A stretch of 64,000 nucleotides of DNA from Candidatus Woesearchaeota archaeon (GTDB lineage Archaea > Nanobdellota > Nanobdellia > Woesearchaeales > SKGA01). Position 1 is the stretch's first letter. Each line of letters starts with the position of its first letter. Location: positions 582 through 64,581 of the forward strand of contig JAIPJP010000002.1 in assembly GCA_021734105.1 (NCBI GenBank), given 5' to 3'. The position numbers were made by a program, and so were the translations under genes. Below, piece after piece: positions 8,890-59,406 of the stretch. The notes under the pieces are model-generated. The model saw nothing but the letters and a program-made list of their open reading frames with translations, had not been told where the DNA came from and did not search any database.

Positions 8890-9075
8890 TTTTTTCAGAA
8901 ATAAAACCCTGAGAATAACTCGTTGTCACTCCTCATCTCAGCATTTGATTTCTTTTAGAAATAAAACCCCGAGACAAACTCATTTCATTCGTAGTCTCAG
9001 GCTTTTATTTTGCATAGCAAAATAAAACCCTGAGAAGACCACAAACAGAGTTTGCGGTCCTCCCGGGAAAAAGAG
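8890..9075. repeat. Three tandem imperfect copies of a ~24-nt motif (aGAAATAAAACCCyGAGAa...) spaced about 60–65 nt apart, each followed by an inverted repeat able to form a hairpin and a T-rich tract
   Basis: Copies at ~8897, ~8957 and ~9020. Hairpins: CTGAGA...TCTCAG, GAGAC...GTCTC, GAAGACC...GGTCCTC. Confidence 0.6.
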
Positions 9076-9193
9076 GTGAGTGTAAAAGTGAGATTCACTT
9101 CAAACCAACCTGCTTAAAACATGAAAAAACTTTCCCATATATAAATGTTTCTTGATTGTAACCATTTTAAAATGAATACAAAAATAAGATAAT

Positions 9194-9766
9194 TTGCCAA
9201 GCAGAAGCTTTAAGAAGGCGAAATACATTCTAACATATATGGTGGATTATATATCTGATTTCACACAAAAGACTTATACTTCTAAAGCGTTTGCAACGCT
9301 TGTAGAACATCGTATTCGAAAAGACTGGAGAATAGGTAATATCTTTGATAAACGAAAAAAATATGCCCTTGTAGATGATAATACTCTTACTACTAACCTT
9401 CTTAAGGAGTTTGTACACAAGATTTTTGCTGGACATCTTACTATGAAATTAGTCGCTTCTGCAAACGAAATTTCTCAAGATCAAGAACTACTCATTAGCG
9501 ATTGTTTAGATACTTATCTTGCAAAACGACTCGATGTATTTTTAGATAAAAAAGATTTTAAGGTCTTTTCTGAACTCGTTCCCTTGCGATCACTCACCAA
9601 ACAAGAATGTGAACAACTCGCAACGATATGGAATATTTCTGGAACGTCCATTCCAGAAGAACACACGTTCATAAAAAATTTACATGCACAATACAAGCAA
9701 ACAAAACAAAGCATGCTTAAAAGTTTCTTAGCGCTAGAAGCTATTGAAAAATCTTCGGAAAAATAG
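9194..9766 (+). CDS. Hypothetical protein (190 aa)
   Basis: ORF only. No motif recognised. Confidence 0.4.
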   Translation: MPSRSFKKAKYILTYMVDYISDFTQKTYTSKAFATLVEHRIRKDWRIGNIFDKRKKYALVDDNTLTTNLLKEFVHKIFAGHLTMKLVASANEISQDQELLISDCLDTYLAKRLDVFLDKKDFKVFSELVPLRSLTKQECEQLATIWNISGTSIPEEHTFIKNLHAQYKQTKQSMLKSFLALEAIEKSSEK

Positions 9767-9805
9767 TCGTTGTATTCTTAAGCAAGTTTTACACATATAT
9801 TTTTT

Positions 9806-10195
9806 ATGCGACGAATCATATTTTTTACACTCTATATTATTATTCTTTTATTATTATATGTTCAATTACCAGAACGAATAATCTATGAAGATGATGAAGG
9901 ATTCACTGAAGTATTTTTTTGTCAAGAAATAAATTGTAGTGCCTTTTTAGTTGATTTATTTGAAGCAAGTAATAATACTTTCTGCGCATTTTATGACTTA
10001 GACGAACCATCGATTATCGCAGGGATTAAACAGAATAATGCGCGTGTTTTATTATTTGAAGATAATTATGAATTTGATTTTTCAAAACAAATTGTTCCAG
10101 TAACAAGTAAAGGACTCATGCATAATAAAATATATTCATGGAAATATTATTATATTTCTCTATCTGATATGAAATATAAATTTTTAAATGTTTAA
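9806..10195 (+). CDS. Hypothetical protein with N-terminal TM/signal anchor (129 aa)
   Basis: MRRIIFFTLYIIILLLLYVQL hydrophobic N-terminus. Confidence 0.4.
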   Translation: MRRIIFFTLYIIILLLLYVQLPERIIYEDDEGFTEVFFCQEINCSAFLVDLFEASNNTFCAFYDLDEPSIIAGIKQNNARVLLFEDNYEFDFSKQIVPVTSKGLMHNKIYSWKYYYISLSDMKYKFLNV

Positions 10196-10199
10196 ATAT

Positions 10200-11264
10200 T
10201 TAACTACTAGTCGAGAATTGCCTTCGATACTCAAAAATACCTTCGCTGGAGTTATACATTTTTAGTAATTTTTCGTTATTCTTTCTATTGTCTCTTAATT
10301 TCTTTACAAAGTATTTGATATCTCCAGCAGGTTTAAATTGCTTAATTGCCTTTAGAAATTGATCTGATGCAATTATTGAACCTGTGAGGATGGTTACTGT
10401 CTTGAATTCCCTATCGAATGCCATTTCTTTCTCTTTGATATTGATAAGAAGTGCTTTAAAATGCTTAATCAAGTTGATTTGTTTCATAAATGCGTTTTGT
10501 CTTTGTGATGTTTTATAGAGAAACTTACTTGTTTTTTGTATATTCTTAAGACTTTGAACAATTTTTCTCTTTAAAAAGTCCTTATCCTTATCGTGAATCT
10601 TTATTTTTTCATTGTCTATCAAAGAACCAATATGTTTTGCAATTACTTGTCTTGTCTTAGAAATATCTATCAAATCAATAAATTCGTCCCATCTCATTTT
10701 ATTGATTTTAGCTTTAGAATAGCTCATATTTTCTTTGTAGATTATTTGCTTCCTGAACAAATCTTTCATATCTTTTGTGAATAACTCTGCCAAATCAGGA
10801 TTTAATCTGTTGAGATTTCTTAGAAATTGCTTAATGCTTTTCTCATGGAGAATATTTTCATAGAATTTTCTCATTAAATTAGAGTTTTCTTTTAAAGGAT
10901 AGTAGAAGAGTAATTGAATGATGTCTTCAATTATTTTTTCTTTAAGTACTACGAATCGTATTGGTTTTTGATGTGGTTTGTCTTTAGGCGGTTCAATCCA
11001 ACCTAATTCATTAAGAATTGTATAAAACCCTTTGATGTTACTTGTTCCATAAAATTTACGTTCACCCATGCAATCCATTAAATCGTTTTTACAAGTTACT
11101 TCTTCAGTAAGCATCTTAATAATGGCCTTAGTATAGAATTTGTTGTCAAGAATGCTTTTTTTAAGAATATATTCTTCTGAGCCACCTTCTTCGACTATTT
11201 GTTCTTTTTTCTCTCTAGTCATGTAACTCATTCCCTTCCGAGATGCATTCTTTTTTTGAGCCAT
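10200..11264 (-). CDS. Hypothetical Lys-rich protein (354 aa)
   Basis: Long ORF with no competing frame. Basic, so possibly nucleic-acid binding. No named motif. Confidence 0.45.
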   Translation of the reverse strand: MAQKKNASRKGMSYMTREKKEQIVEEGGSEEYILKKSILDNKFYTKAIIKMLTEEVTCKNDLMDCMGERKFYGTSNIKGFYTILNELGWIEPPKDKPHQKPIRFVVLKEKIIEDIIQLLFYYPLKENSNLMRKFYENILHEKSIKQFLRNLNRLNPDLAELFTKDMKDLFRKQIIYKENMSYSKAKINKMRWDEFIDLIDISKTRQVIAKHIGSLIDNEKIKIHDKDKDFLKRKIVQSLKNIQKTSKFLYKTSQRQNAFMKQINLIKHFKALLINIKEKEMAFDREFKTVTILTGSIIASDQFLKAIKQFKPAGDIKYFVKKLRDNRKNNEKLLKMYNSSEGIFEYRRQFSTSS

Positions 11265-11445
11265 AATAGTTAGGTTTGATTGTTTCCTTATAAGTATTTT
11301 TCTATTTGATATGAAATCGTGATTTTTTTTATTAACTCAGCTTCTTTTAATTTTACTATGGAATTATCCAAACTTAAAGAATTTATCAATTCTGAATTTG
11401 CAGAATTGTTTGTGAAATGGGCTAGAGAGTCTGATAATCAAATGA

Positions 11446-11718
11446 ATGGGGGTGAGTATCATGAGTGAAGAACCTTTTGCAAAGAAAGTTGATACGAAGA
11501 AATATCTAACGCTATCTTTCTTTTGTCAAAGAAATGATTTCCGTGTTTGTCCAAATTGTGGTTGTGTTACAATTTTAGATGCTGACAAGTTAGACAATTT
11601 AACTACTAAAGAGAGGATTGATTTTGTTTTTGATAATAAATTCAAAATACATCTAGGTCTTTGTTCAGATTCATGTGCTAAAGAATTTTTAGGAGGTCTT
11701 TATGATGTCTACAAATGA
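11446..11718 (+). CDS. Small zinc-finger protein (CPNCGC...C..C), 90 aa
   Basis: Cys cluster CQRNDFRVCPNCGCV...CSDSCAKEF. Overlaps the start of the downstream P-loop gene, which suggests coupling. Confidence 0.4.
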   Translation: MGVSIMSEEPFAKKVDTKKYLTLSFFCQRNDFRVCPNCGCVTILDADKLDNLTTKERIDFVFDNKFKIHLGLCSDSCAKEFLGGLYDVYK

Positions 11719-13294
11719 TAAAAATGCACATGAGCAAAAGGACAATTCTTCTTCGGAAGAATTTGTTCAATCTGATTTTGGTAAGTTCTATATTGAAGCA
11801 CAAGAGGATGGAAATTATTTGATGAATTATAAAGAAGATAATTCTGATACTGTCTCCTCAAAGGTTATAGATGGGGTTTTTAACTTTTTAAAGTTTAGAA
11901 GGTTTGTAAGAGAAAACATGATTGACCTTGGAAGTCGTAATAATAAAGAAATGTATGATGAAATTTGTAAGCTAAAGAAACTAATTAAACTAAATAAAGA
12001 GAATACAATCAACCCAATAGACAGTTTCTTTGAAGATAGTGAGTTACTAGAAAACAATCAGTTGGTTATAGATGAACAGTTAGCATATACTATGTGCAAC
12101 GGTTACAATACTATTCTTGTAACATATGAAAAGGGATTCGAATTTATTGATGAAGATGATAGATTTAGAAAATATCCCAAGATGAAGTCAAATTTATTGA
12201 CGAAACGAGGTAAACAAAAATTAGAATCAAAACTAGTTAATGAAAATATCTTTAATGATTTAAAGCAATTGTTGCTAAAATATGCAGAATTGCCTGAAAG
12301 CGATTTGAATATTGTTTTATTTTACATTTTTCATTCTTACTTACACAATATACAAGGTAGTACAGTCTATCTTTATTTTACAGGAATGCCTGGAACTGGT
12401 AAATCTTCTATTCTAAAATTTCTAAAACTTGTTACTTGGAATGGTCAGTATGTTTGCAATCTATCTGCTTCATCTTTGTTTAGAGAAGTGCATGTGCTAC
12501 AACCAACATTAAATATTGATGAAATTGACAAGGTTGGTCAAGACATGTATAGTTCTATTCAAGGACTAATTCATAGTGGGTACTCTAAAGGAGGTGTTGT
12601 TAAACGTACAGAAAGAACCACTCTGGGGAACTTTGTACCTACTGAGTTCCGTGTATTTTGTCCCAAAACGTTTACCAGTAATTCTCCAATTTTTGTAGAT
12701 AGTTTCAAAAGTAGATGTATTCAGATAATACCTCAAAAAACTAGTAGGTTCATCTACCCAATAGACATACTTTCGAAAGAAGATTTGGATACCTTCTCGG
12801 ACATTCGTGATGATATTTACATATACATGTTAAAATATGGTATGGATATTTTTGATATTTTCAAAGATGAGATTGAAAATCCTCAAAGAATATCTACTAG
12901 AAAGAATCAGTTAATTTCTGTTTTAAATTGTTTTAATAAGCATTTCAATGTTAATATGGATATTGAGAAAGCACTTCAAAAAAAAGAGGAATTTACACAT
13001 CCATTCCAAGACCACTACTTTCTAATTTTGGAAATATTAGCTGAGAATATAAAAGATGGCTACTGTACTATACGGCCTAGTGATTTAGCTAAAAAAATGA
13101 ATTACAAATTAGAAGGAGAAAACTTGCTAAGACACCATGTAACTTCCATCAGTGCTGGAATGAAAATGACCAATCTTGGTTTTTCAGAATTTAAAAGGCT
13201 AAATACCTCACACGGTTATCATTATGATATTCCGATGGAAAGAATAAAAAGAGCCATAATGATTAATGGATTTGACATTCAGATTCCTGAATAA
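11702..13294 (+). CDS. P-loop NTPase, putative SF3-helicase-like/primase-associated replication protein of a mobile element
   Basis: Walker A YFTGMPGTGKSSILKF, Walker B LNIDEIDKVG, and a downstream Arg-containing segment. Central position of the NTPase domain with an N-terminal ~220-aa region matches plasmid/viral replication initiators. Confidence 0.45.
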   Translation: MMSTNDKNAHEQKDNSSSEEFVQSDFGKFYIEAQEDGNYLMNYKEDNSDTVSSKVIDGVFNFLKFRRFVRENMIDLGSRNNKEMYDEICKLKKLIKLNKENTINPIDSFFEDSELLENNQLVIDEQLAYTMCNGYNTILVTYEKGFEFIDEDDRFRKYPKMKSNLLTKRGKQKLESKLVNENIFNDLKQLLLKYAELPESDLNIVLFYIFHSYLHNIQGSTVYLYFTGMPGTGKSSILKFLKLVTWNGQYVCNLSASSLFREVHVLQPTLNIDEIDKVGQDMYSSIQGLIHSGYSKGGVVKRTERTTLGNFVPTEFRVFCPKTFTSNSPIFVDSFKSRCIQIIPQKTSRFIYPIDILSKEDLDTFSDIRDDIYIYMLKYGMDIFDIFKDEIENPQRISTRKNQLISVLNCFNKHFNVNMDIEKALQKKEEFTHPFQDHYFLILEILAENIKDGYCTIRPSDLAKKMNYKLEGENLLRHHVTSISAGMKMTNLGFSEFKRLNTSHGYHYDIPMERIKRAIMINGFDIQIPE

Positions 13295-13913
13295 TATTTT
13301 TATTTGAAATTCTGGAAAGGTATTTTGTAAATAAACCAGTTCCACTGGTTATTATTTCTTCTTTATCTCCTTCTTCAAAAGCAAGTATTAGTCTTGATGA
13401 TTTTTCTTGAGAATCAAGTAGCCCACTTATATTTTTACTAAGATTATTTCTTTGCAACGGATCGTCACATCTTCTAAAATCTCTTAGTAGTACATCAATC
13501 ATGTATTGTCTTGTGTCTTTAACTCTTTTTATGATTGTATCTGGATGTATATCGAGTTTTTGATATGCTGTTGGAAGATATTCTCTGAATGTAAATCTGC
13601 TTATCTTTAATTTATCTAAATCATCTTCAGTAATGTCTATATATGGCTTTTTTGTTCTTTCCCCCAATACTTTCATTAGCCATATATGTGGGACAATAGA
13701 ACGAGGTTTACACCCTCTTTTGGTTAATGATGAATTCTTAAATTGTTCAAGTGTTGCTTTTTGTTCATCTGATAATTTAGAATGATAAATTGTATTCTCA
13801 ATTTGGTCTATGAACTTTTGTTCTAATTCTGCTTCCTCATCAATAAATTGATAATTCTTATTTAAGCTCTGAAGATGCTTCTTTCTTTCTATTCCTCTGG
13901 ACATTCTAACCAT
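13263..13913 (-). CDS. Hypothetical protein (216 aa). Recombinase-like role considered but not supported.
   Basis: ORF at the right edge of the putative element. No clear R..HxxR..Y tyrosine-recombinase or serine-recombinase signature. Confidence 0.35.
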   Translation of the reverse strand: MVRMSRGIERKKHLQSLNKNYQFIDEEAELEQKFIDQIENTIYHSKLSDEQKATLEQFKNSSLTKRGCKPRSIVPHIWLMKVLGERTKKPYIDITEDDLDKLKISRFTFREYLPTAYQKLDIHPDTIIKRVKDTRQYMIDVLLRDFRRCDDPLQRNNLSKNISGLLDSQEKSSRLILAFEEGDKEEIITSGTGLFTKYLSRISNKNIIQESECQIH

Positions 13914-13996
13914 ATTTAAGCCCTCTATGTTTATATATGAATTTAATATTTCATATCAAATAGAGAGTTTCAATAATATTTCCATGAGTAAATAAT

Positions 13997-14632
13997 ATGC
14001 ATCATAAATTTTGTGTGTTTGATAACCGCTATGTACTTACAGGTACTTGGAATCCAACAAACCGAGGAACAAATGTAAACGATAATTATATTATGTTTAT
14101 TGCTTCACAAAAAATGGCTGCACGATTCTTGCAAGAGTATGCGTTTATCGTATCTGGTGAAGTCCAGCCAGAACCACTTTTTCTGCATCTTGTAGAACAG
14201 CCTATTCAACTCTATTTTTGTCCAACACATCATTGTGAAACTCGGGTGCTTAGTGCACTCTCAAAAGCAAATGAATCCATACAAGTACTCGCGTTTTCAT
14301 TTACGAGTAAACCAATTGCAGAACTTTTAGTGAATAAATCATTGGCAGGAGTGAATGTGAGTGTTGTCTTTGAGAAAACAAGAATTACTCGGTATAGCCA
14401 ATACGAATATTTATCTGCAAATGGTGTTTCTGTCTTTAAGGATACAAACAAATACACTATGCACGAAAAACTATTTATTATAGATAATAATACAGTAATA
14501 GCAGGATCGTATAATCCAACACAATCAGCAACAACAAGAAATGAGGAAAATATATTAATAATACAAGATAAAGAACTCGCACAAGAATTTATTAGAGAAT
14601 TTACAAGAATACTAAACCTTGCAAAACAATAG
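13997..14632 (+). CDS. Phospholipase-D-family (HKD) protein with two HKD motifs, apparently 5'-truncated: the first HKD begins at residue 2. Likely Nuc/endonuclease- or cardiolipin-synthase-like. Possibly a pseudogene remnant.
   Basis: MHHKFCVFDNRYVLTGTWNPTNRG (HxKx4Dx6GSxN) at the extreme N-terminus. Second complete PLD domain ends in HEKLFIIDNNTVIAGSYNPT. An in-frame stop lies 2 codons upstream of the ATG, and the preceding ~80 aa of a normal first PLD domain are absent. Confidence 0.6.
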   Translation: MHHKFCVFDNRYVLTGTWNPTNRGTNVNDNYIMFIASQKMAARFLQEYAFIVSGEVQPEPLFLHLVEQPIQLYFCPTHHCETRVLSALSKANESIQVLAFSFTSKPIAELLVNKSLAGVNVSVVFEKTRITRYSQYEYLSANGVSVFKDTNKYTMHEKLFIIDNNTVIAGSYNPTQSATTRNEENILIIQDKELAQEFIREFTRILNLAKQ

Positions 14633-56013: not shown

Positions 56014-59000
56014 TTATTTTTTTGCGAAGAATTTTTGAATTTGTTCTTGATAATGATTTACTGATACTTTCATCTTCCACGTCTTTGGAAAGCAGCGATA
56101 ATACTGAGGCCATGTGAAACGTTCATCAAGAAACACAATAACGCCCCTGTCTGTTTCGCTTCTAATACAGCGCCCAGCACTTTGAATAATTTTGTTAAAG
56201 GCTGGAAACACATAGCCGTAATCCCAGCCTTTACTGAATTTTTTATCATAATACTCAATTAATGCTTTAGTTTCAAGGTCAGGTCTGCCTAAAGGAAGAC
56301 CCACAACGACAACACCTTTAAGCTCCTCGCCTGGAAGATCAATACCTTCACTAAAACTACCTCCCACAACAGCTAAAAGACACGCGCCGGTGAGTTGTTG
56401 GCGACGAAACGAGAGAATAACTTCCTCTTTTTCTTGCTTACTCATATCTTGATACTCATGCAGCATCGCTTTTTCTACTTTAGAAAGATAGGTATCAATA
56501 GCATCTTTCATTTGGTAACTAGGGAAAAAAACAGCTATATTACCAGGCACTTCATTAATAACACTAGTAAGGATTTTTGCTATTTCCTGATATTGCCCCT
56601 CATTTCTTGTTGTGTATTTAGTGCTTGTTTTTGCAATAATAAGATTAAGACTGTTTTTTTCAGGAAAAGGAGACGGATAGGTTTCCTCTACAGTTCCTGG
56701 AGGAAAACCCAAAAGCTCACTATACATTTTTGTTGGTGTGAGCGTTCCACTCATCAAAATAGTGCTACTAGCCTTTAACACAACTTCTTTAGCAATAATA
56801 CTTGGATCAAGACAACGATAACTCAGCGTAATATTTTCTTGATTATACGCTCGTTTCTTACTAATAATGCGAGTAAAACCATCATCTTTACCTATCCAAC
56901 TATCAAGAAAATCAGCAACAGCTCCAAGAGAGGATAATTTTTGTTCTTCGCGAATGTTATCGGCAATTTTGTACAATTCTTCAGTTAAAGGAATAAGAGA
57001 AGTTATTTTTTCTGCTTGGAGTGTGAATGTTTCTTGAGAAACAAATTTTTCATCATCACTACCTTTCATAAGATCACGCAATAATTTTGCAAATTGACCC
57101 ATCACATGTTCAATAGCTAGATGTCCAAATTTTTTAGCTTCACTTGCAGCGCGCTTGAGTAAAACAAGCGAGAGATTCGCAGTTGCTAAATCTTTAATAC
57201 GATTAGGTAAATTATGTGCTTCATCAACAATAATAATGGCGTTTTCTAATTCTTTTTTATTCTTTTTAAGAAATGTTTCTCGAATGCGAGGATGAAAAAG
57301 ATAATAATAATCAGCAATAATAACGTGCGCCTTTGCAGCCATAAGAAGCGCGATTTCATAAGGACAAACTTTATACTCTTTACCTGTTTTCATGGTTTCT
57401 TCAACAACACTAGGACCCATTTGCTCCATTTCAGCAAGTGCGAGTCGAGCGTTAGGCGTTAATTGTTCTCCTCGTTTTAAGTTTTCATAAAACTCGCAGC
57501 GTTTATCTTCTCGAAGTGTACGACAATACTCATTAAACTCGCCAGTTGGCAAAGTCGTTACCCCTGGTTGCAAACACATCCATTTTTTACCAACGATATC
57601 TGCTCCCGAAAGCTCGATATTATGTCGTTTTCTTATTGCTTGCAAAGTTTCAATAGCAATTTTATGTTGCGTATTTTTAGAAGTGAGAAAAAAGATTGTT
57701 TTGCCTTTGTCAAGTGCTTGCGAAAGAACTGGCGCGATACTTGCAGCAGTATTATGGAGGATGATGCCATTTCCAATAAAGTTTTTAGTTAGGGGGATTG
57801 AGGCATCATAAACGAAATCTTTCTTGGTTTTTTTTATTTTAACTATTTTATCCCAAAAAATATTTGAATTCGCAAGTTCTTTTAATTTATTAAACGATTC
57901 GCTTGTTTTATCTGTTTTTTTCTTAAAATAGCGCACTGTTTTTTTGAGTCCTTCCTTTGACGGATTTCTTTGATTGTATAAATAACTTTCAATAATTCGA
58001 TATTCTTTTTCTCTTGAATAAGGTATTTGTAGCTCTTCTTTACACTTTTTGATTAGTGAATTAATTTCAGGGATTATGTTAATATTGGTGTTATTTTCTT
58101 TTTTAATTAATTCGTTTAATCGTTCTTGTTTATATTTGATTCTAAGCTTTATTTGTGCATGAAATTTCTTATTATTCTCCGTATCGCAAGTATAAATTCT
58201 GAAATACTTTTTATTTTTAACATATTTTTCTTTAATAATTGGATAAATATCTAAAGCTAGGAGTGCATGAAGAAGACTGTTTTTCAAATTCTCACTTTTT
58301 GTACATAATTCAATAGTTGTATTGTCAAAAATAGATCCGTTTGTATCGTAAATTCCAGCAATTACTTCTTTTAATAATTCCTTGTTTTTAAAAAATATGT
58401 TTGGAATTGAAACTTTGCTTGTTTTATTTGAAGTTGGAAAACCAAGACTAAATAGTAAACTTATTAATGGTTTATTTTCAAAATAATAATCTATATCCGA
58501 ACCTGTTTTTTTTCTTATATTTGATTTTGTTTCTTTGGCTATTTCTTTGAATGTTGATAAAATTTCTTTGTCTTTTGTACTTAAGTTTATTGCCTTACGT
58601 TTTCCAGAATCAATGAATCCATCACCAATTATTAATCCGACAAAATAGGCAAATTTTTTATCGATATGGGGAATTATTCTGTGATTGATTCCCATTCTTC
58701 CAATTTCTTCAACTCTGAAATATTTAGGATGGATATTTATTAAATGAATTATTTTTCTGATGTCTTTAATCTGTATGACTTGTTGTTTGGCTATTTTCTT
58801 TATTTTATCTTGTGAGATCCCAGAACTTTTTGATATATCTTTAAACGTTAAATTATTTTGTTGTTTGAATTTTAAAAGCTCCCCACTAATAAGGGGTTTT
58901 GTTTTTATGGTGGTTTTATCTAAATAATTATTTTTTAATTTTAGATATTGATCTAGTTTTATGTCGATCTTATCTTCTAGTATGTTTAGTTTGGATGGTG

Positions 59001-59406
59001 ATGCAATGTATCCTTCTTCTTTAAGATCTTTTAACTTGATCCATTCTGTTTTTCCATTTTTAATTGAGAAAAATTTATGATCGTCAGTAACTTCTATTTC
59101 CCTACCTGTTTTTGTAGTTAATTTATACAGTTGACTCTTTTTTTTCTTTATTATTTGTCCTTGCTTTACTTGTATTTTGAGGTTTTTATCAAGGCTATTG
59201 GTTTTAATCTGTTTTAAGTATATATCTTCTATTTTTTCAAGACCGTCTTGAGTTAAAATTAAAGTATCTTTGCCAACGCATTTACCAAGACCAGTTGGTG
59301 CATGGATGACTATGTTATTTTTGTTTTCTACTTCCTTTGCAATGAGTTGTACCATATCTTTTTGAATAGGTCGAGCAGACTCGTGAGGAAAAAGAATTGT
59401 AGACAT
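56014..59406 (-). CDS. XPD/Rad3-family (DinG-like) ATP-dependent DNA helicase precursor containing a ~510-aa intein inserted in the Walker A P-loop
   Basis: Extein reads ...HAPTGLGK|TAASIAPVLS... across the intein. Downstream are the 4Fe-4S-type Cys region, DEAH box (IIVDEAHNL), and helicase motifs III–VI (…SGTLTP…, VVGGSFSEGIDLPG, QSAGRCIRSETDRGVIVFLDERF). Extein is about 620 aa. Confidence 0.9.
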   Translation of the reverse strand: MSTILFPHESARPIQKDMVQLIAKEVENKNNIVIHAPTGLGKCVGKDTLILTQDGLEKIEDIYLKQIKTNSLDKNLKIQVKQGQIIKKKKSQLYKLTTKTGREIEVTDDHKFFSIKNGKTEWIKLKDLKEEGYIASPSKLNILEDKIDIKLDQYLKLKNNYLDKTTIKTKPLISGELLKFKQQNNLTFKDISKSSGISQDKIKKIAKQQVIQIKDIRKIIHLINIHPKYFRVEEIGRMGINHRIIPHIDKKFAYFVGLIIGDGFIDSGKRKAINLSTKDKEILSTFKEIAKETKSNIRKKTGSDIDYYFENKPLISLLFSLGFPTSNKTSKVSIPNIFFKNKELLKEVIAGIYDTNGSIFDNTTIELCTKSENLKNSLLHALLALDIYPIIKEKYVKNKKYFRIYTCDTENNKKFHAQIKLRIKYKQERLNELIKKENNTNINIIPEINSLIKKCKEELQIPYSREKEYRIIESYLYNQRNPSKEGLKKTVRYFKKKTDKTSESFNKLKELANSNIFWDKIVKIKKTKKDFVYDASIPLTKNFIGNGIILHNTAASIAPVLSQALDKGKTIFFLTSKNTQHKIAIETLQAIRKRHNIELSGADIVGKKWMCLQPGVTTLPTGEFNEYCRTLREDKRCEFYENLKRGEQLTPNARLALAEMEQMGPSVVEETMKTGKEYKVCPYEIALLMAAKAHVIIADYYYLFHPRIRETFLKKNKKELENAIIIVDEAHNLPNRIKDLATANLSLVLLKRAASEAKKFGHLAIEHVMGQFAKLLRDLMKGSDDEKFVSQETFTLQAEKITSLIPLTEELYKIADNIREEQKLSSLGAVADFLDSWIGKDDGFTRIISKKRAYNQENITLSYRCLDPSIIAKEVVLKASSTILMSGTLTPTKMYSELLGFPPGTVEETYPSPFPEKNSLNLIIAKTSTKYTTRNEGQYQEIAKILTSVINEVPGNIAVFFPSYQMKDAIDTYLSKVEKAMLHEYQDMSKQEKEEVILSFRRQQLTGACLLAVVGGSFSEGIDLPGEELKGVVVVGLPLGRPDLETKALIEYYDKKFSKGWDYGYVFPAFNKIIQSAGRCIRSETDRGVIVFLDERFTWPQYYRCFPKTWKMKVSVNHYQEQIQKFFAKK
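57751..59280 (-). mobile_element. Intein with LAGLIDADG homing-endonuclease domain (about 510 aa) within the XPD helicase gene
   Basis: Begins CVGKDTLILTQDG (Cys1, block A) directly after GLGK. Ends ...FIGNGIILHN followed by extein Thr+1. Two LAGLIDADG motifs: FVGLIIGDGFID and LKEVIAGIYDTNGSI. Coordinates derived from residue positions 43–552 of the track ORF. Confidence 0.8.

Follow-up and report, generated by a model that had tools for sequence, protein, structure and literature searches.

The 64-kb window, the whole stretch of Ca. Woesearchaeota DNA analysed here, carries six ORFs (190, 129, 354, 90, 530 and 216 aa) between a gene for a Cys-rich protein and a fragment of a PLD gene. A sequence-only reading had taken these as a six-gene element starting at position 9130, with hairpin repeats at its left boundary and, at its right boundary, a PLD gene that had lost its 5′ end. 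All six ORFs are present, but two of them (190-aa and 129-aa) are host DNA, and the actual left core begins at 10118. The PLD fragment does mark the right boundary, but its 5′ half survives as the 129-aa ORF: this ORF (9806-10195) and the fragment (13997-14632) are two halves of a single Nuc-like PLD nuclease gene, and the break falls precisely on the first HxK catalytic motif of this gene. The repeats, three 35-nt units at 8890, 8950 and 9011 together with a 19-nt hairpin at 8995-9035, are real but lie 1.1 kb outside the element. The 190-aa ORF (9194-9766) also falls outside. Coordinates are collected in Table 1.

Table 1 Features of the interrupted PLD locus (positions in the window)
Feature	Position	Strand	Description
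Host PLD gene, 5′ half	9806..10117	+	signal/anchor peptide; reads to ...SKGL
attL core ATGCATAATAAA	10118..10129	+	element-type repeat copy; codes M-H-N-K
Left inverted-repeat arm	10125..10183		best-matched 10136-10183; holds near-palindromic motif TCTATCTGATATGAAAT
354-aa Lys-rich protein	10200..11264	-	adjoins left end in all Rep-type relatives
Third, internal copy of terminal-repeat motif	11295..11327		TCTATTTGATATGAAAT at 11301-11317
90-aa zinc-ribbon protein	11446..11718	+	Cys-x2-Cys...Cys-x3-Cys; also 5′ of Rep in L001, L002 and L099
Short Rep, 529/530 aa	11702..13294	+	predicted helicase half of primase-helicase family
216-aa fusion ORF, 3′ part	13263..13607	-	from the element's 154-159-aa gene
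Integrase remnant	13608..13913	-	first 102 codons of ~518-aa tyrosine recombinase; in-frame fusion
Right inverted-repeat arm	13940..13998		best-matched 13940-13987; near-identical to integrase-proximal end of L007 element
attR core ATGCATCATAAA	13997..14008	+	host-type copy; codes M-H-H-K of first HKD motif
Host PLD gene, 3′ half	13997..14632	+	PLDc_2 3e-36; MCF7798365.1

The 3′ half of the PLD gene begins precisely at MHHKFCVFD and contains the second HKD motif, MHEKLFIID, and the ORF of the 5′ half continues across the core into the element before stopping. When the halves were rejoined in silico, the product read ...SKGLMHHKFCVFDNRYVLTGTWNPT, with a PLDc active-site match spanning the junction (PLDc motif at residues 103-123) and two PLDc_2 stretches (PLDc_2, 1.9e-37). 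The rejoined protein is a two-HKD PLD, and its nearest solved structure is the Nuc endonuclease 1byr (7e-19). In the window, the gene is now broken into ORFs of 129 and 211 aa, the first of its two HKD motifs having been struck. The exact rejoined sequence was absent from the sequence collection searched; the searches yielded neither an empty site nor an undisrupted orthologue of this PLD gene.

The insert itself (10130-13996; 3,867 bp, 3.9 kb) is bracketed by a 12-bp direct repeat whose copies, ATGCATAATAAA and ATGCATCATAAA, differ at one base. The left copy is identical to the cores around a related element in L002 and to the end of contig L099. The AT-richness on which the sequence-only reading had relied is borne out for the insert (29.3% GC, compared to 36.1% for the remainder of the window), but other stretches of the window are equally AT-rich, so that composition by itself is no proof of an element. 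Both ends carry arms of a terminal inverted repeat (59 nt, 81% complementary) that is imperfect, with ~50 nt well matched; its score of 27 was the highest, compared to 14.4 ± 1.5 (maximum 18) in a control of 40 dinucleotide shuffles. The arms, ~50 nt long and 27 bp apart, are unlike the core-site geometry of classical tyrosine recombinases, and any role of theirs is putative. The terminal-repeat motif occurs exactly three times in the window, at both ends and in the intergenic region from which the 354-aa gene and the Zn-ribbon/Rep operon diverge. All three positions are kept in L099/L007 and two in L001, and the internal copy is a candidate operator or origin site.

Searches of the element's ORFs against Pfam, PHROGs and NCBIfam gave nothing significant, the best results being weak, sub-threshold AAA matches for the 530-aa protein, whose family has no Pfam model. 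This protein contains Walker A (GMPGTGKS, K234) and Walker B (D273-E274) motifs, TSN327, an invariant R338 and a winged-helix-like C-terminal end. It is without the ~305-aa AEP-like N-terminal domain carried by relatives of 827-846 aa, and the same 529-aa form occurs in the 13.2-kb relative described below. Within the family, the N-terminal domain is found fused to D5_N/DUF5906 or MCM, and the C-terminal domain to DnaG-type primases. Fold matches of Rep were to ASFV PrimPol, Prim-PolC, CAPP and RepB′, and a fold search against viral proteins returned solely primase-helicases (D5-, VirE-, NrS-1- and twinkle-like), 26 of them at E<=1e-3 (best E 1.4e-10). The AF2 models are mediocre (pLDDT 64-65), and that of Rep is poor in the P-loop core. 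The fold matches, and the AEP-like domain in relatives, support the view that the 530-aa ATPase corresponds to the helicase portion of a primase-helicase of viral/plasmid type that would act in replication, as its Walker A/B layout had led the sequence-only reading to propose.

The 90-aa ORF overlaps the Rep start by 17 nt, as had also been noted earlier for a small Zn-finger ORF, and the two are therefore probably translationally coupled. The 354-aa protein is identical to MCF7798361.1 of Ca. Woesearchaeota, and a search of 5.8 billion proteins gave no more than 4 homologues. Its model (AF2 pLDDT 64) shows a helical domain preceded by an N-terminal part that may be a winged helix; the structure search gave no match for it. 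The genes of the replication module are intact, and dN/dS values of 0.024 for Rep and 0.12 for the 90-aa gene against the 13.2-kb relative, and of 0.08 for the 354-aa gene against L099, point to purifying selection, strong for Rep, along the lineages separating the window copy from that relative.

The insert is co-linear with both ends of a 13.2-kb element from other metagenomes at 82-90% nucleotide identity: window positions 10121-13634 match L099 at 89.5%, and 13609-14007 match L007 at 82.5%. This parent-type element is a composite of these two contigs, which come from two samples and overlap by 5.5 kb at 99.5%; all sequences compared are metagenome assemblies. The window copy differs from it by a single ~9.4-kb deletion. 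The missing DNA comprises most of a tyrosine-integrase gene including the catalytic domain, a serine resolvase, methyltransferase/restriction genes and toxin-antitoxin-like cargo. A further contig, L005, reproduces both junctions and is identical to the window; it may derive from reads that also went into the MAG. Nor was any circular (attP) form detected.

The deletion has left its trace in the 216-aa ORF. Residues 4-102 share 74% identity with residues 1-99 of a 518-aa Phage_integrase protein, and the 3′ part of the ORF encodes a stretch with 53% identity to the 159-aa protein of L002. The junction lies at ~13605-13615, with ~8 nt of imperfect microhomology. The 216-aa protein is thus the in-frame scar of the ~9.4-kb deletion, joining 5′ codons of the integrase to the 154-aa gene, and it keeps zero catalytic residues. 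Full-length relatives of this integrase are ~520 aa long, with a SAM-like N-terminal part, an HTH at the C-terminus and, in addition, a Cys4 zinc-ribbon-like segment; in a full-length relative, Phage_integrase was detected at 3.9e-24, with R197, K224, H294-x2-R297 and Y330 conserved. The att core lies ~84 bp upstream of the integrase start, outside the ORF, so that integration leaves the integrase gene unsplit. No second integrase was found in the window. The sequence-only reading had seen no integrase here and had considered either a novel one or a decayed element; the remnant in the 216-aa ORF speaks for ordinary tyrosine-recombinase integration, and its truncation by the later deletion for decay.

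Six further loci (L002, L007, L009, L100, L101 and L103) carry integrases that are 45-81% identical. A PLD gene fragment starting M/V-H-x-K adjoins the element in all six, in five of them a PLDc_2 fragment. When the window is included, the host DNA at the integrase end begins (A/G)TGCA(T/C)(A/C)A(T/C)AA(A/G), encoding M/V-H-H/N-K, in 7/7 loci, with the same core and orientation over host GC contents from 30% to 49%. The target in L002 amounts to a 29-codon HxKx4D remnant only, lacks Pfam support and could be a secondary site. Since L100, L101 and L009 carry different replication or virion modules, targeting tracks the integrase and neither Rep nor the 354-aa gene. This specificity has a limit, as a 37%-identical integrase adjoins a HAD-hydrolase gene instead. 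The named integrase relatives come from Woese-, Micr- and Nanoarchaeota. In L100, the element supplies the last 55 codons of a PLD gene, the host ORF stays intact (359 aa, two-HKD), and the original 3′ end (59 codons) has been displaced to a position beside the integrase; no replacement PLD 3′ end is present in the window lineage (window, L099/L007 and L002).

The inverted repeats, far above chance, and the short direct repeat on both sides of the insert could also be those of a cut-and-paste or self-synthesising transposon, as transposase sites and target-site duplication, respectively. Its machinery would be the 354-aa protein, for which Pfam, PHROGs, NCBIfam and structure searches gave no assignable function, or the ATPase as an IstB/TnsC-like helper. 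We regard this explanation as highly improbable. A duplication would give identical copies, whereas the left copy is the core of related elements and the right copy consists of host codons; one sequence in one orientation is used at seven of seven independent loci; and specificity tracks the tyrosine integrase even in elements devoid of the 354-aa and Rep genes. Furthermore, Pfam, PHROGs and NCBIfam searches gave no transposase signature, whether DDE, Cas1 or another, and the ATPase clusters with primase-helicases.

We conclude, with a probability of about 85%, that a ~13-kb integrative, plasmid-like DPANN element has left an immobilised deletion derivative in the window, and that this decayed element belongs to an undescribed family of DPANN integrative elements whose attB is of a new kind. 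The integrated, plasmid-like nature proposed by the sequence-only reading is supported by the split gene, the att repeats and the 13.2-kb relative, and we found neither conserved housekeeping synteny, nor a uniform composition, nor a cellular ATPase family for the 530-aa protein. The parent would have been a circular replicon, its replication aided by Rep as helicase, by the Zn-ribbon protein coupled to it and by the 354-aa protein; the intergenic region with the third copy of the terminal motif probably includes an operator or origin. Its integrase is likely to have recombined the attP core with the look-alike host codons ATG-CAT-CAT-AAA (M-H-H-K). At every locus, the variable core bases after ATGCA are element-type at the 5′ part of the gene and host-type beside the integrase, and from this we infer a crossover at or 5′ of core position 6. 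A later microhomology-mediated deletion would have taken out the catalytic half of the integrase, leaving a remnant unable to excise alone and the nuclease gene disrupted.

The same deletion could instead have produced a live, streamlined, satellite-like mini-element, retaining both att sites, the replication module and a regulatory fusion protein, which the integrase of a full-length relative would excise and mobilise in trans. The att cores and inverted-repeat arms at the two ends are intact, as are the 354-aa, 90-aa and Rep ORFs (dN/dS 0.02-0.12 against the 13.2-kb relative), the fusion ORF is open and in frame, and the same integrase clade is distributed over several element types. However, low dN/dS mainly records pre-deletion history, the window contains no second integrase, only a single copy in a single genomic context is known (the window and the identical L005), and a free or re-integrated 3.9-kb form was not found in three collections. 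We consider mobility of this kind unlikely.

Equally doubtful is a parent that was a virus, which would make the window a provirus remnant. L101, with the same integrase clade and PLD target, encodes a large terminase, the fold matches of Rep are to viral proteins, and archaeal virion proteins are frequently missed by profile searches. However, no virion genes were detected in the 13.2-kb parent, and Pfam and PHROGs gave no capsid, terminase or portal signal in it or in L002; both encode Rep, resolvase, restriction-modification and toxin-antitoxin-like genes, and the small serine resolvase is plasmid-typical.

The preferred reading, a decayed integrative plasmid-like element, has parallels among known systems. 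Archaeal elements with AEP primase-superfamily 3 helicase replication proteins include the pRN1 ORF904-type plasmids and their integrated relatives, and the Rep family described here similarly combines an N-terminal prim-pol-like domain, a P-loop helicase and a winged-helix end. Like archaeal cryptic integrated elements and integrative plasmids, the element is small, virion-less and integrated by a tyrosine recombinase (PMC6563490). Its relatives share restriction-modification and toxin-antitoxin cargo with the thaumarchaeal iMGEs, for which protein-gene integration is documented, 14 of 68 being integrated in 3′-distal parts of genes (Krupovic et al. 2019, PMC6563490). Unlike iMGE- and pRN1-type elements, its Rep, 354-aa, 90-aa and 154-aa proteins match no Pfam, PHROGs or NCBIfam family, the Rep of the window lineage is entirely without a primase domain, the hosts are DPANN archaea (Ca. 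Woesearchaeota for the window), and integration occurs at the codons for the catalytic motif of a PLD nuclease.

Phage 21 and e14 integrate at the 3′ end of E. coli icd and supply a replacement end. The L100 element likewise provides a replacement PLD 3′ end and keeps the host ORF, whereas the window lineage has none and the window PLD gene is broken. Lambda-type (non-suicidal) archaeal tyrosine integrases (PMC8371274) also have a SAM-like N-terminal part, a Phage_integrase domain with R, K, HxxR and Y, short direct-repeat cores, and an att core outside an ORF that is not split; the relatives of the window integrase are unusually long (~520 aa), with the Cys4 zinc-ribbon-like segment and C-terminal HTH, and the window retains just 102 non-catalytic codons. 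The attB is not a tRNA gene, and the few protein-gene targets listed in PMC8371274 (HMG-CoA reductase, a cation-efflux gene and AsnC) are none of them PLD-type. An incomplete integrase gene at one end recalls SSV-type 'suicidal' integrases, in which attP lies inside the ORF and recombination splits the gene into halves that persist at opposite ends (PMC7253208, PMC8371274). In contrast, the window element has its attP core upstream of the ORF, and it was the internal 9.4-kb deletion that took away the missing part of the integrase gene. TIR/TSD transposons such as IS elements and casposons likewise have inverted repeats at their termini and a short direct repeat on either side, but the window element has no transposase or Cas1, its direct repeats are non-identical, and its target is fixed and orientation-specific.

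The right boundary of the insert had been described as a gene without its 5' end, and this was borne out: the missing 5' half is a 129-aa ORF across the insert. This ORF starts with a signal/anchor peptide and ends in ...VTSKGLMHNK plus 21 unrelated residues, and the 'truncated PLD' gene on the other side has the N-terminus MHHKFCVFDNRYVLTGTWNPT and matches PLDc_2 (3e-36). Joining the halves at the common M-H-x-K yields a 315-aa protein with two PLDc_2 stretches, two HxKx4Dx6G(S/T)xN motifs, as in Nuc-like PLD nucleases, and a PLDc active-site match that spans the junction. At the DNA level, left flank, one core and right flank form a continuous two-HKD PLD ORF, the arrangement of an att-bounded element. 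The solved relatives of the rejoined protein are the Nuc endonuclease (1byr, 7e-19, the closest), Zucchini (4.7e-13) and NucT (4.4e-6). Because the halves rejoin to a two-HKD PLD with the active-site match over the junction, they are one Nuc-like nuclease gene split in the first HKD motif.

The direct repeats for which the sequence-only reading had suggested a search were found as the 12-bp cores ATGCATAATAAA (left) and ATGCATCATAAA (right), the left copy lying elsewhere than near 8.9-9.1 kb. The two cores differ at 1/12 positions: the copy on the side of the PLD 5' half carries the element-type base, that on the side of the 3' half the host-type base. Variable core positions in L100, a contig with a related integrase, show the same arrangement. 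Because the one-base difference separates element-type (5') from host-type (3'), it fits attP x attB recombination, with an exchange that we infer to lie at or 5' of core position 6. The first HKD motif of the window PLD gene has 1 mismatch to the core versus 3 for the second motif, and the gene was broken because this better-matching motif was hit. As to an empty site, the rejoined PLD protein was absent from a collection of 15 billion proteins in an exact-sequence look-up. No related genome was present among GTDB representatives, no attP contig or circular form was found in GTDB genomes, IMG/VR or JGI metagenomes, and tRNA and Rfam scans of the region and of the window revealed no RNA gene and no tRNA target.

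Coordinates of the features in the window and in contigs carrying relatives
Feature	Sequence	Position	Strand	Remarks
35-nt repeat array	window	8890-9045
19-nt hairpin	window	8995-9035		from fourth, inverted repeat copy
190-aa ORF	window	9194-9766		TTG start
129-aa ORF	window	9806-10195		PLD 5' half
Left core	window	10118-10129
Insert	window	10130-13996		3,867 bp
Inverted repeat, left arm	window	10125-10183
Inverted repeat, right arm	window	13940-13998
354-aa gene	window	10200-11264	-
Third copy of inner motif	window	11301-11317
Rep gene	window	11702-13294	+
Segment aligned to L099	window	10121-13634
Segment aligned to L007	window	13609-14007		integrase end of L007
Deletion junction	window	~13605-13615
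Right core	window	13997-14008
'Truncated PLD'	window	13997-14632		PLD 3' half
XPD/Rad3-like ORF	window	56014-59406	-	1130 aa
Most AT-rich stretch	window	~57.5-59.5 kb		25-29% GC
Element	L007	1-9860		31% GC
Host DNA	L007	9870-17495		49% GC
PLD gene and displaced 3' end	L100	18779-19858, 9723-9902
Right-hand host DNA	L002	16249-16340
Terminase-bearing element	L101	10001-21563		also L102
Integrase beside HAD-hydrolase gene	L104	6898-7654		also L105, L106
Contig end at core or terminal repeat	L099	11144		end
Contig end at core or terminal repeat	L001	1		start
Contig end at core or terminal repeat	L102	1		start

No integrase had been evident at first reading, which does not hold: residues 4-102 of the 216-aa ORF are 74% identical to residues 1-99 of a 518-aa integrase, in which the gene module of the relative in L002 terminates. 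The latter protein matches Phage_integrase (PF00589, 3.9e-24) and carries the tyrosine recombinase signature, with R197, K224, H294, R297 and Y330 conserved. The 216-aa ORF is a chimera whose residues 73-214 are 53% identical to the 159-aa protein of L002. It has no Pfam match, its integrase-derived part comprises residues 1-102 only and includes no catalytic residue, and no further integrase occurs in the 64-kb window.

DNA alignment matched most of the insert to L099 (89.5% identity) and its right end to the integrase end of L007 (82.5%). These two contigs overlap over 5.5 kb at 99.5% and so give one 13.2-kb element. Because the window aligns to both ends of this element, its copy corresponds to the 13.2-kb element minus a single ~9.4-kb deletion, with ~8 nt of imperfect microhomology at the junction. 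All data are metagenomic assemblies, in which the parent element is a two-contig composite and L005, a contig identical to the window, may be dependent on the Woesearchaeota MAG. In L007 the integrase gene is itself fragmented, forming three ORFs, with its N-terminal ~30 codons out of frame and a second break near codon 344; having passed between hosts of very different kinds, this copy, too, seems to be in decay.

Other modes of insertion were rejected. An SSV-type suicidal (split) integrase is contradicted by the position of the core, 84 bp upstream of the integrase start and hence outside the ORF, and by the other element end, which has the stop codon of the 354-aa gene and no integrase fragment. 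Terminal inverted repeats are present, as a DDE/IS transposon would have them, though the flanking repeats are non-identical (1/12 differs). Against both such a transposon and a casposon, the target is fixed and no transposase or Cas1 domain was detected with Pfam, PHROGs or NCBIfam.

The same target recurs beside related integrases. In 7/7 loci, spanning integrases 45-100% identical and host GC of 30-49%, the host DNA beside the integrase starts (A/G)TGCA(T/C)(A/C)A(T/C)AA(A/G), in one orientation. The L002 element is flanked at both ends by ATGCATAATAAAT, with inverted repeats inside, and the end of L099 stops within the ATGCATAATAAAT core. In L007, where the host has 49% GC, the near-identical integrase-proximal end adjoins a PLDc_2 fragment of 57 aa (MHHKVFIID...), and in L009, L100, L101 and L103 integrases of 45-49% identity each adjoin a 57-63-aa PLD fragment beginning at the HxK motif. 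Gene content varies among the elements, with an AAA_25 protein in L100, a large terminase in L101 and other genes in L009; since they otherwise differ, targeting goes with the integrase and with neither Rep nor the 354-aa gene. An integrase of 37% identity adjoins a HAD-hydrolase gene, not PLD, and thereby bounds the PLD-specific clade.

Taken together, these results make it probable, at roughly three chances in four, that a clade of ~520-aa tyrosine integrases of DPANN archaea uses the M/V-H-x-K codons of secreted Nuc-like PLD genes as attB. The clade would be common to unrelated elements (Rep/resolvase plasmid-like, AAA_25 and terminase provirus), some of them with a replacement 3' end and the window lineage without one, so that the nuclease is knocked out. 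Conservation of the motif would allow one element to enter hosts that differ as widely as 30% and 49% GC. The two outcomes are illustrated by L100 (integrase 46% identical), in which both element ends are on the contig: an intact PLD gene (359 aa, two HKD motifs) runs into the element for its final 55 codons, and the original 3' end, of 59 codons, has been displaced to a position next to the integrase. This element supplies a replacement PLD end and therefore restores its own target; replacement gene ends are also carried by some phages. The window and L099 ends, representing the window lineage, have no such replacement. That the element or its DNA traffic gains from losing an extracellular nuclease is much less certain.

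Several further loci deserve mention. The element of L101 and L102, also at a PLD HxK target, encodes a Terminase_6N large terminase and beta-helix/Big-domain proteins, and presumably represents a head-tailed provirus with a DPANN archaeal host. In L104 the 37%-identical integrase lies 81 bp from the start of the HAD-hydrolase gene, whose N-terminus (VVILLIVFDLDDTL...) starts shortly ahead of HAD catalytic motif I. It may be a second instance of an attB made up of catalytic-motif codons; a direct repeat was not found at this locus. The right-hand host DNA of L002 reads MHNKCCVIDKWRKSPEIIKYLNKFFFVLS*, an HxKx4D start followed by non-PLD sequence, and on the left side the core is ~55 bp from an unrelated divergent gene, so that the target is either a heavily eroded PLD or a secondary site. 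Three independent contigs end in, or a few bases from, the att core or terminal repeat, and L106 probably does so too, its integrase having the same 90-bp offset from the contig start as in L102. Because assemblers break contigs where an element has more than one context, this hints that integrated and other forms coexist in these samples. The integrase alignment recovered from IMG/VR only relatives of 34% identity or less.

Just inside the cores lies a 59-nt inverted repeat, 81% complementary, whose score of 27 is by far the best of the region (dinucleotide shuffles, 14.4 +/- 1.5, maximum 18). Its inner motif TCTATTTGATATGAAAT occurs in only three copies in 64 kb, at the two ends and between the divergent 354-aa gene and the Zn-ribbon/Rep operon. 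We speculate that the 354-aa or Zn-ribbon protein binds this near-palindromic motif at the ends and in the promoter/origin region.

The insert is AT-rich, as the sequence-only reading had stated (29.3% GC vs 36.1% for the rest of the window), but other AT-rich stretches exist. The most AT-rich one falls within an XPD/Rad3-like helicase ORF. Judged from its translation alone, this ORF has an apparent intein inserted at the Walker A motif and bearing a homing endonuclease of the LAGLIDADG type (landmarks …GLGKC/VGKDTLIL…, FAYFVGLIIGDGFID and …GIILHN/T, slashes marking the borders). The tandem hairpin repeats earlier taken as the left boundary are real, but lie outside the element and are unrelated to its boundary. 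They consist of a 35-nt unit (core AAATAAAACCC(T/C)GAGA) repeated three times at ~60-nt spacing downstream of a Cys-rich secreted-protein gene, with a fourth, inverted copy; the four matches in the window all fall in this array, compared with 0.15 expected by chance. The array has no Rfam match and could be a terminator array or small RNA.

All six ORFs of the earlier reading were recovered by ORF listing; as element genes two are lost, the 129-aa ORF being the host PLD 5' half and the 190-aa ORF lying outside the element, directly upstream of the PLD gene. The latter has no Pfam, PHROGs or NCBIfam match, and its exact sequence is absent from the protein collection. The same three libraries gave nothing above threshold for any element ORF. 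MCF7798361.1 and MCF7798365.1 (K9M74_00490 and K9M74_00510), annotated as hypothetical in the MAG of a Candidatus Woesearchaeota archaeon, are identical to the 354-aa protein and the PLD fragment, respectively. Relatives of the 354-aa protein number only four; its AF2 model, of moderate confidence only (mean pLDDT 64, pTM 0.57), shows a possible winged helix followed by helices, and Foldseek found no match in the PDB (best E 0.5, scattered GntR/FCD-like regulators).

In relatives, the module comprises a 354/355-aa gene (-), a ~90-aa Zn-ribbon gene (+), Rep (+), a ~155-aa gene (-), 115-aa and ~70-aa genes and a serine resolvase, after which come cargo genes of the restriction-modification and toxin-antitoxin-like types. 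One contig (L004, the same as L006; CAZLSE010000053.1) carries Rep, 157-aa, 115-aa and resolvase genes with Eco57I/MmeI-type restriction-modification genes in a bin labelled 'uncultured Gammaproteobacteria bacterium'; because the relatives are archaeal, it is probably misbinned. No virion gene was detectable in Rep-type elements. Given this and the small resolvase, we call them plasmid-like, with the usual caveat concerning archaeal virion proteins.

The window Rep has Walker A K234, Walker B D273-E274 (39 aa on), TSN327 and R338, invariant in 25 diverse relatives, in a set and spacing that we take to be the SF3 pattern. The earlier assignment as an SF3-like NTPase thus stands for the motifs, but not for a significant match to a curated SF3 model or solved SF3 structure. 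Pfam gave weak, sub-threshold AAA matches and no curated SF3 or AEP model matched, so that membership is by architecture and fold, not sequence. Against PDB sequences, the single sequence had only chance-level or Walker A-level matches and the 25-sequence profile only the MCM Walker A region (E>0.1). One relative matched RNA_helicase (4e-4) below the cutoff.

The AF2 model used for Rep, that of protein P0002, has pLDDT 65, with the P-loop core below 50. Its top PDB matches were ASFV PrimPol (3.8e-3), Prim-PolC, CAPP Prim-Pol, RepB' and the LigD polymerase domain, none at E<=1e-3, and D5/E5, ORC and MCM were weaker than ASFV PrimPol. Among the predicted viral structures of BFVD, the model, with this low-confidence core (pLDDT <50), gave 26 matches at E<=1e-3 (best 1.4e-10), all primase-helicases, of the D5, VirE, NrS-1 and twinkle types.

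Close Rep relatives are few, and three of them, of 827-846 aa, have an extra N-terminal domain of ~305 aa that is absent from the window Rep (alignment columns 5-309). In these relatives IEFDE, GKS(S/P)HIR and (L/I)DxSL are conserved; the domain has no Pfam match, and Foldseek gave Prim-PolC and CAPP probability 1.0 but E 0.03. From these motifs and models, AEP membership of the 827-846-aa relatives is likely. An exhaustive profile search of metagenomes retrieved 10,607 Rep relatives at E<=1e-3, among which the two domains occur independently: the N-terminal domain is elsewhere fused to D5_N plus DUF5906 or MCM P-loop domains, and the C-terminal P-loop domain, which weakly resembles RNA_helicase and MCM, is joined elsewhere to primases of the DnaG type (Toprim, DNAG_N, CHC2 zinc finger). 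Private decay of a primase domain in the window Rep was rejected: a 529-aa form is present in the 13.2-kb relative too, family members of ~500 aa are common, and comparison of the two copies shows strong purifying selection on Rep (dN/dS 0.024; 0.08 and 0.12 for the 354-aa and Zn-ribbon genes, respectively). With the Rep alignment as query, IMG/VR and JGI metagenomes yielded nothing, and GTDB genomes yielded one contig, already known, from a MAG that bears the label Gammaproteobacteria.

Five 'hypothetical proteins' and one 'truncated' gene thus become a single history of integration followed by deletion. Mobile elements of DPANN archaea are barely described, and this locus gives access to a family that has a replication module and for which attP/attB and the integrase clade are defined. 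No component of the module belongs to a curated family, yet the Rep profile finds >10,000 metagenomic relatives. An integrase with a short 12-bp core for small-genome archaea is also a candidate genetic tool where none exists now.

It is well known that archaea harbour integrated elements that combine AEP-S3H replication proteins with tyrosine integrases, and some of these elements lie in the 3'-distal portion of a protein gene (PMC6563490). Most attB sites in archaea are tRNA genes, and the few protein-gene targets in a review include none of the PLD type (PMC8371274); our literature search for PLD/HKD-targeting integrases or described DPANN integrative plasmids returned nothing relevant. The window object is a decayed integrated element of an ordinary kind; the element family is undescribed, and its protein-gene attB is new and unusually well-defined. 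The use of conserved catalytic-motif codons as integration site, with or without a replacement end, parallels the targeting of tRNA genes and could account for the passage of one element between hosts of very different kinds.
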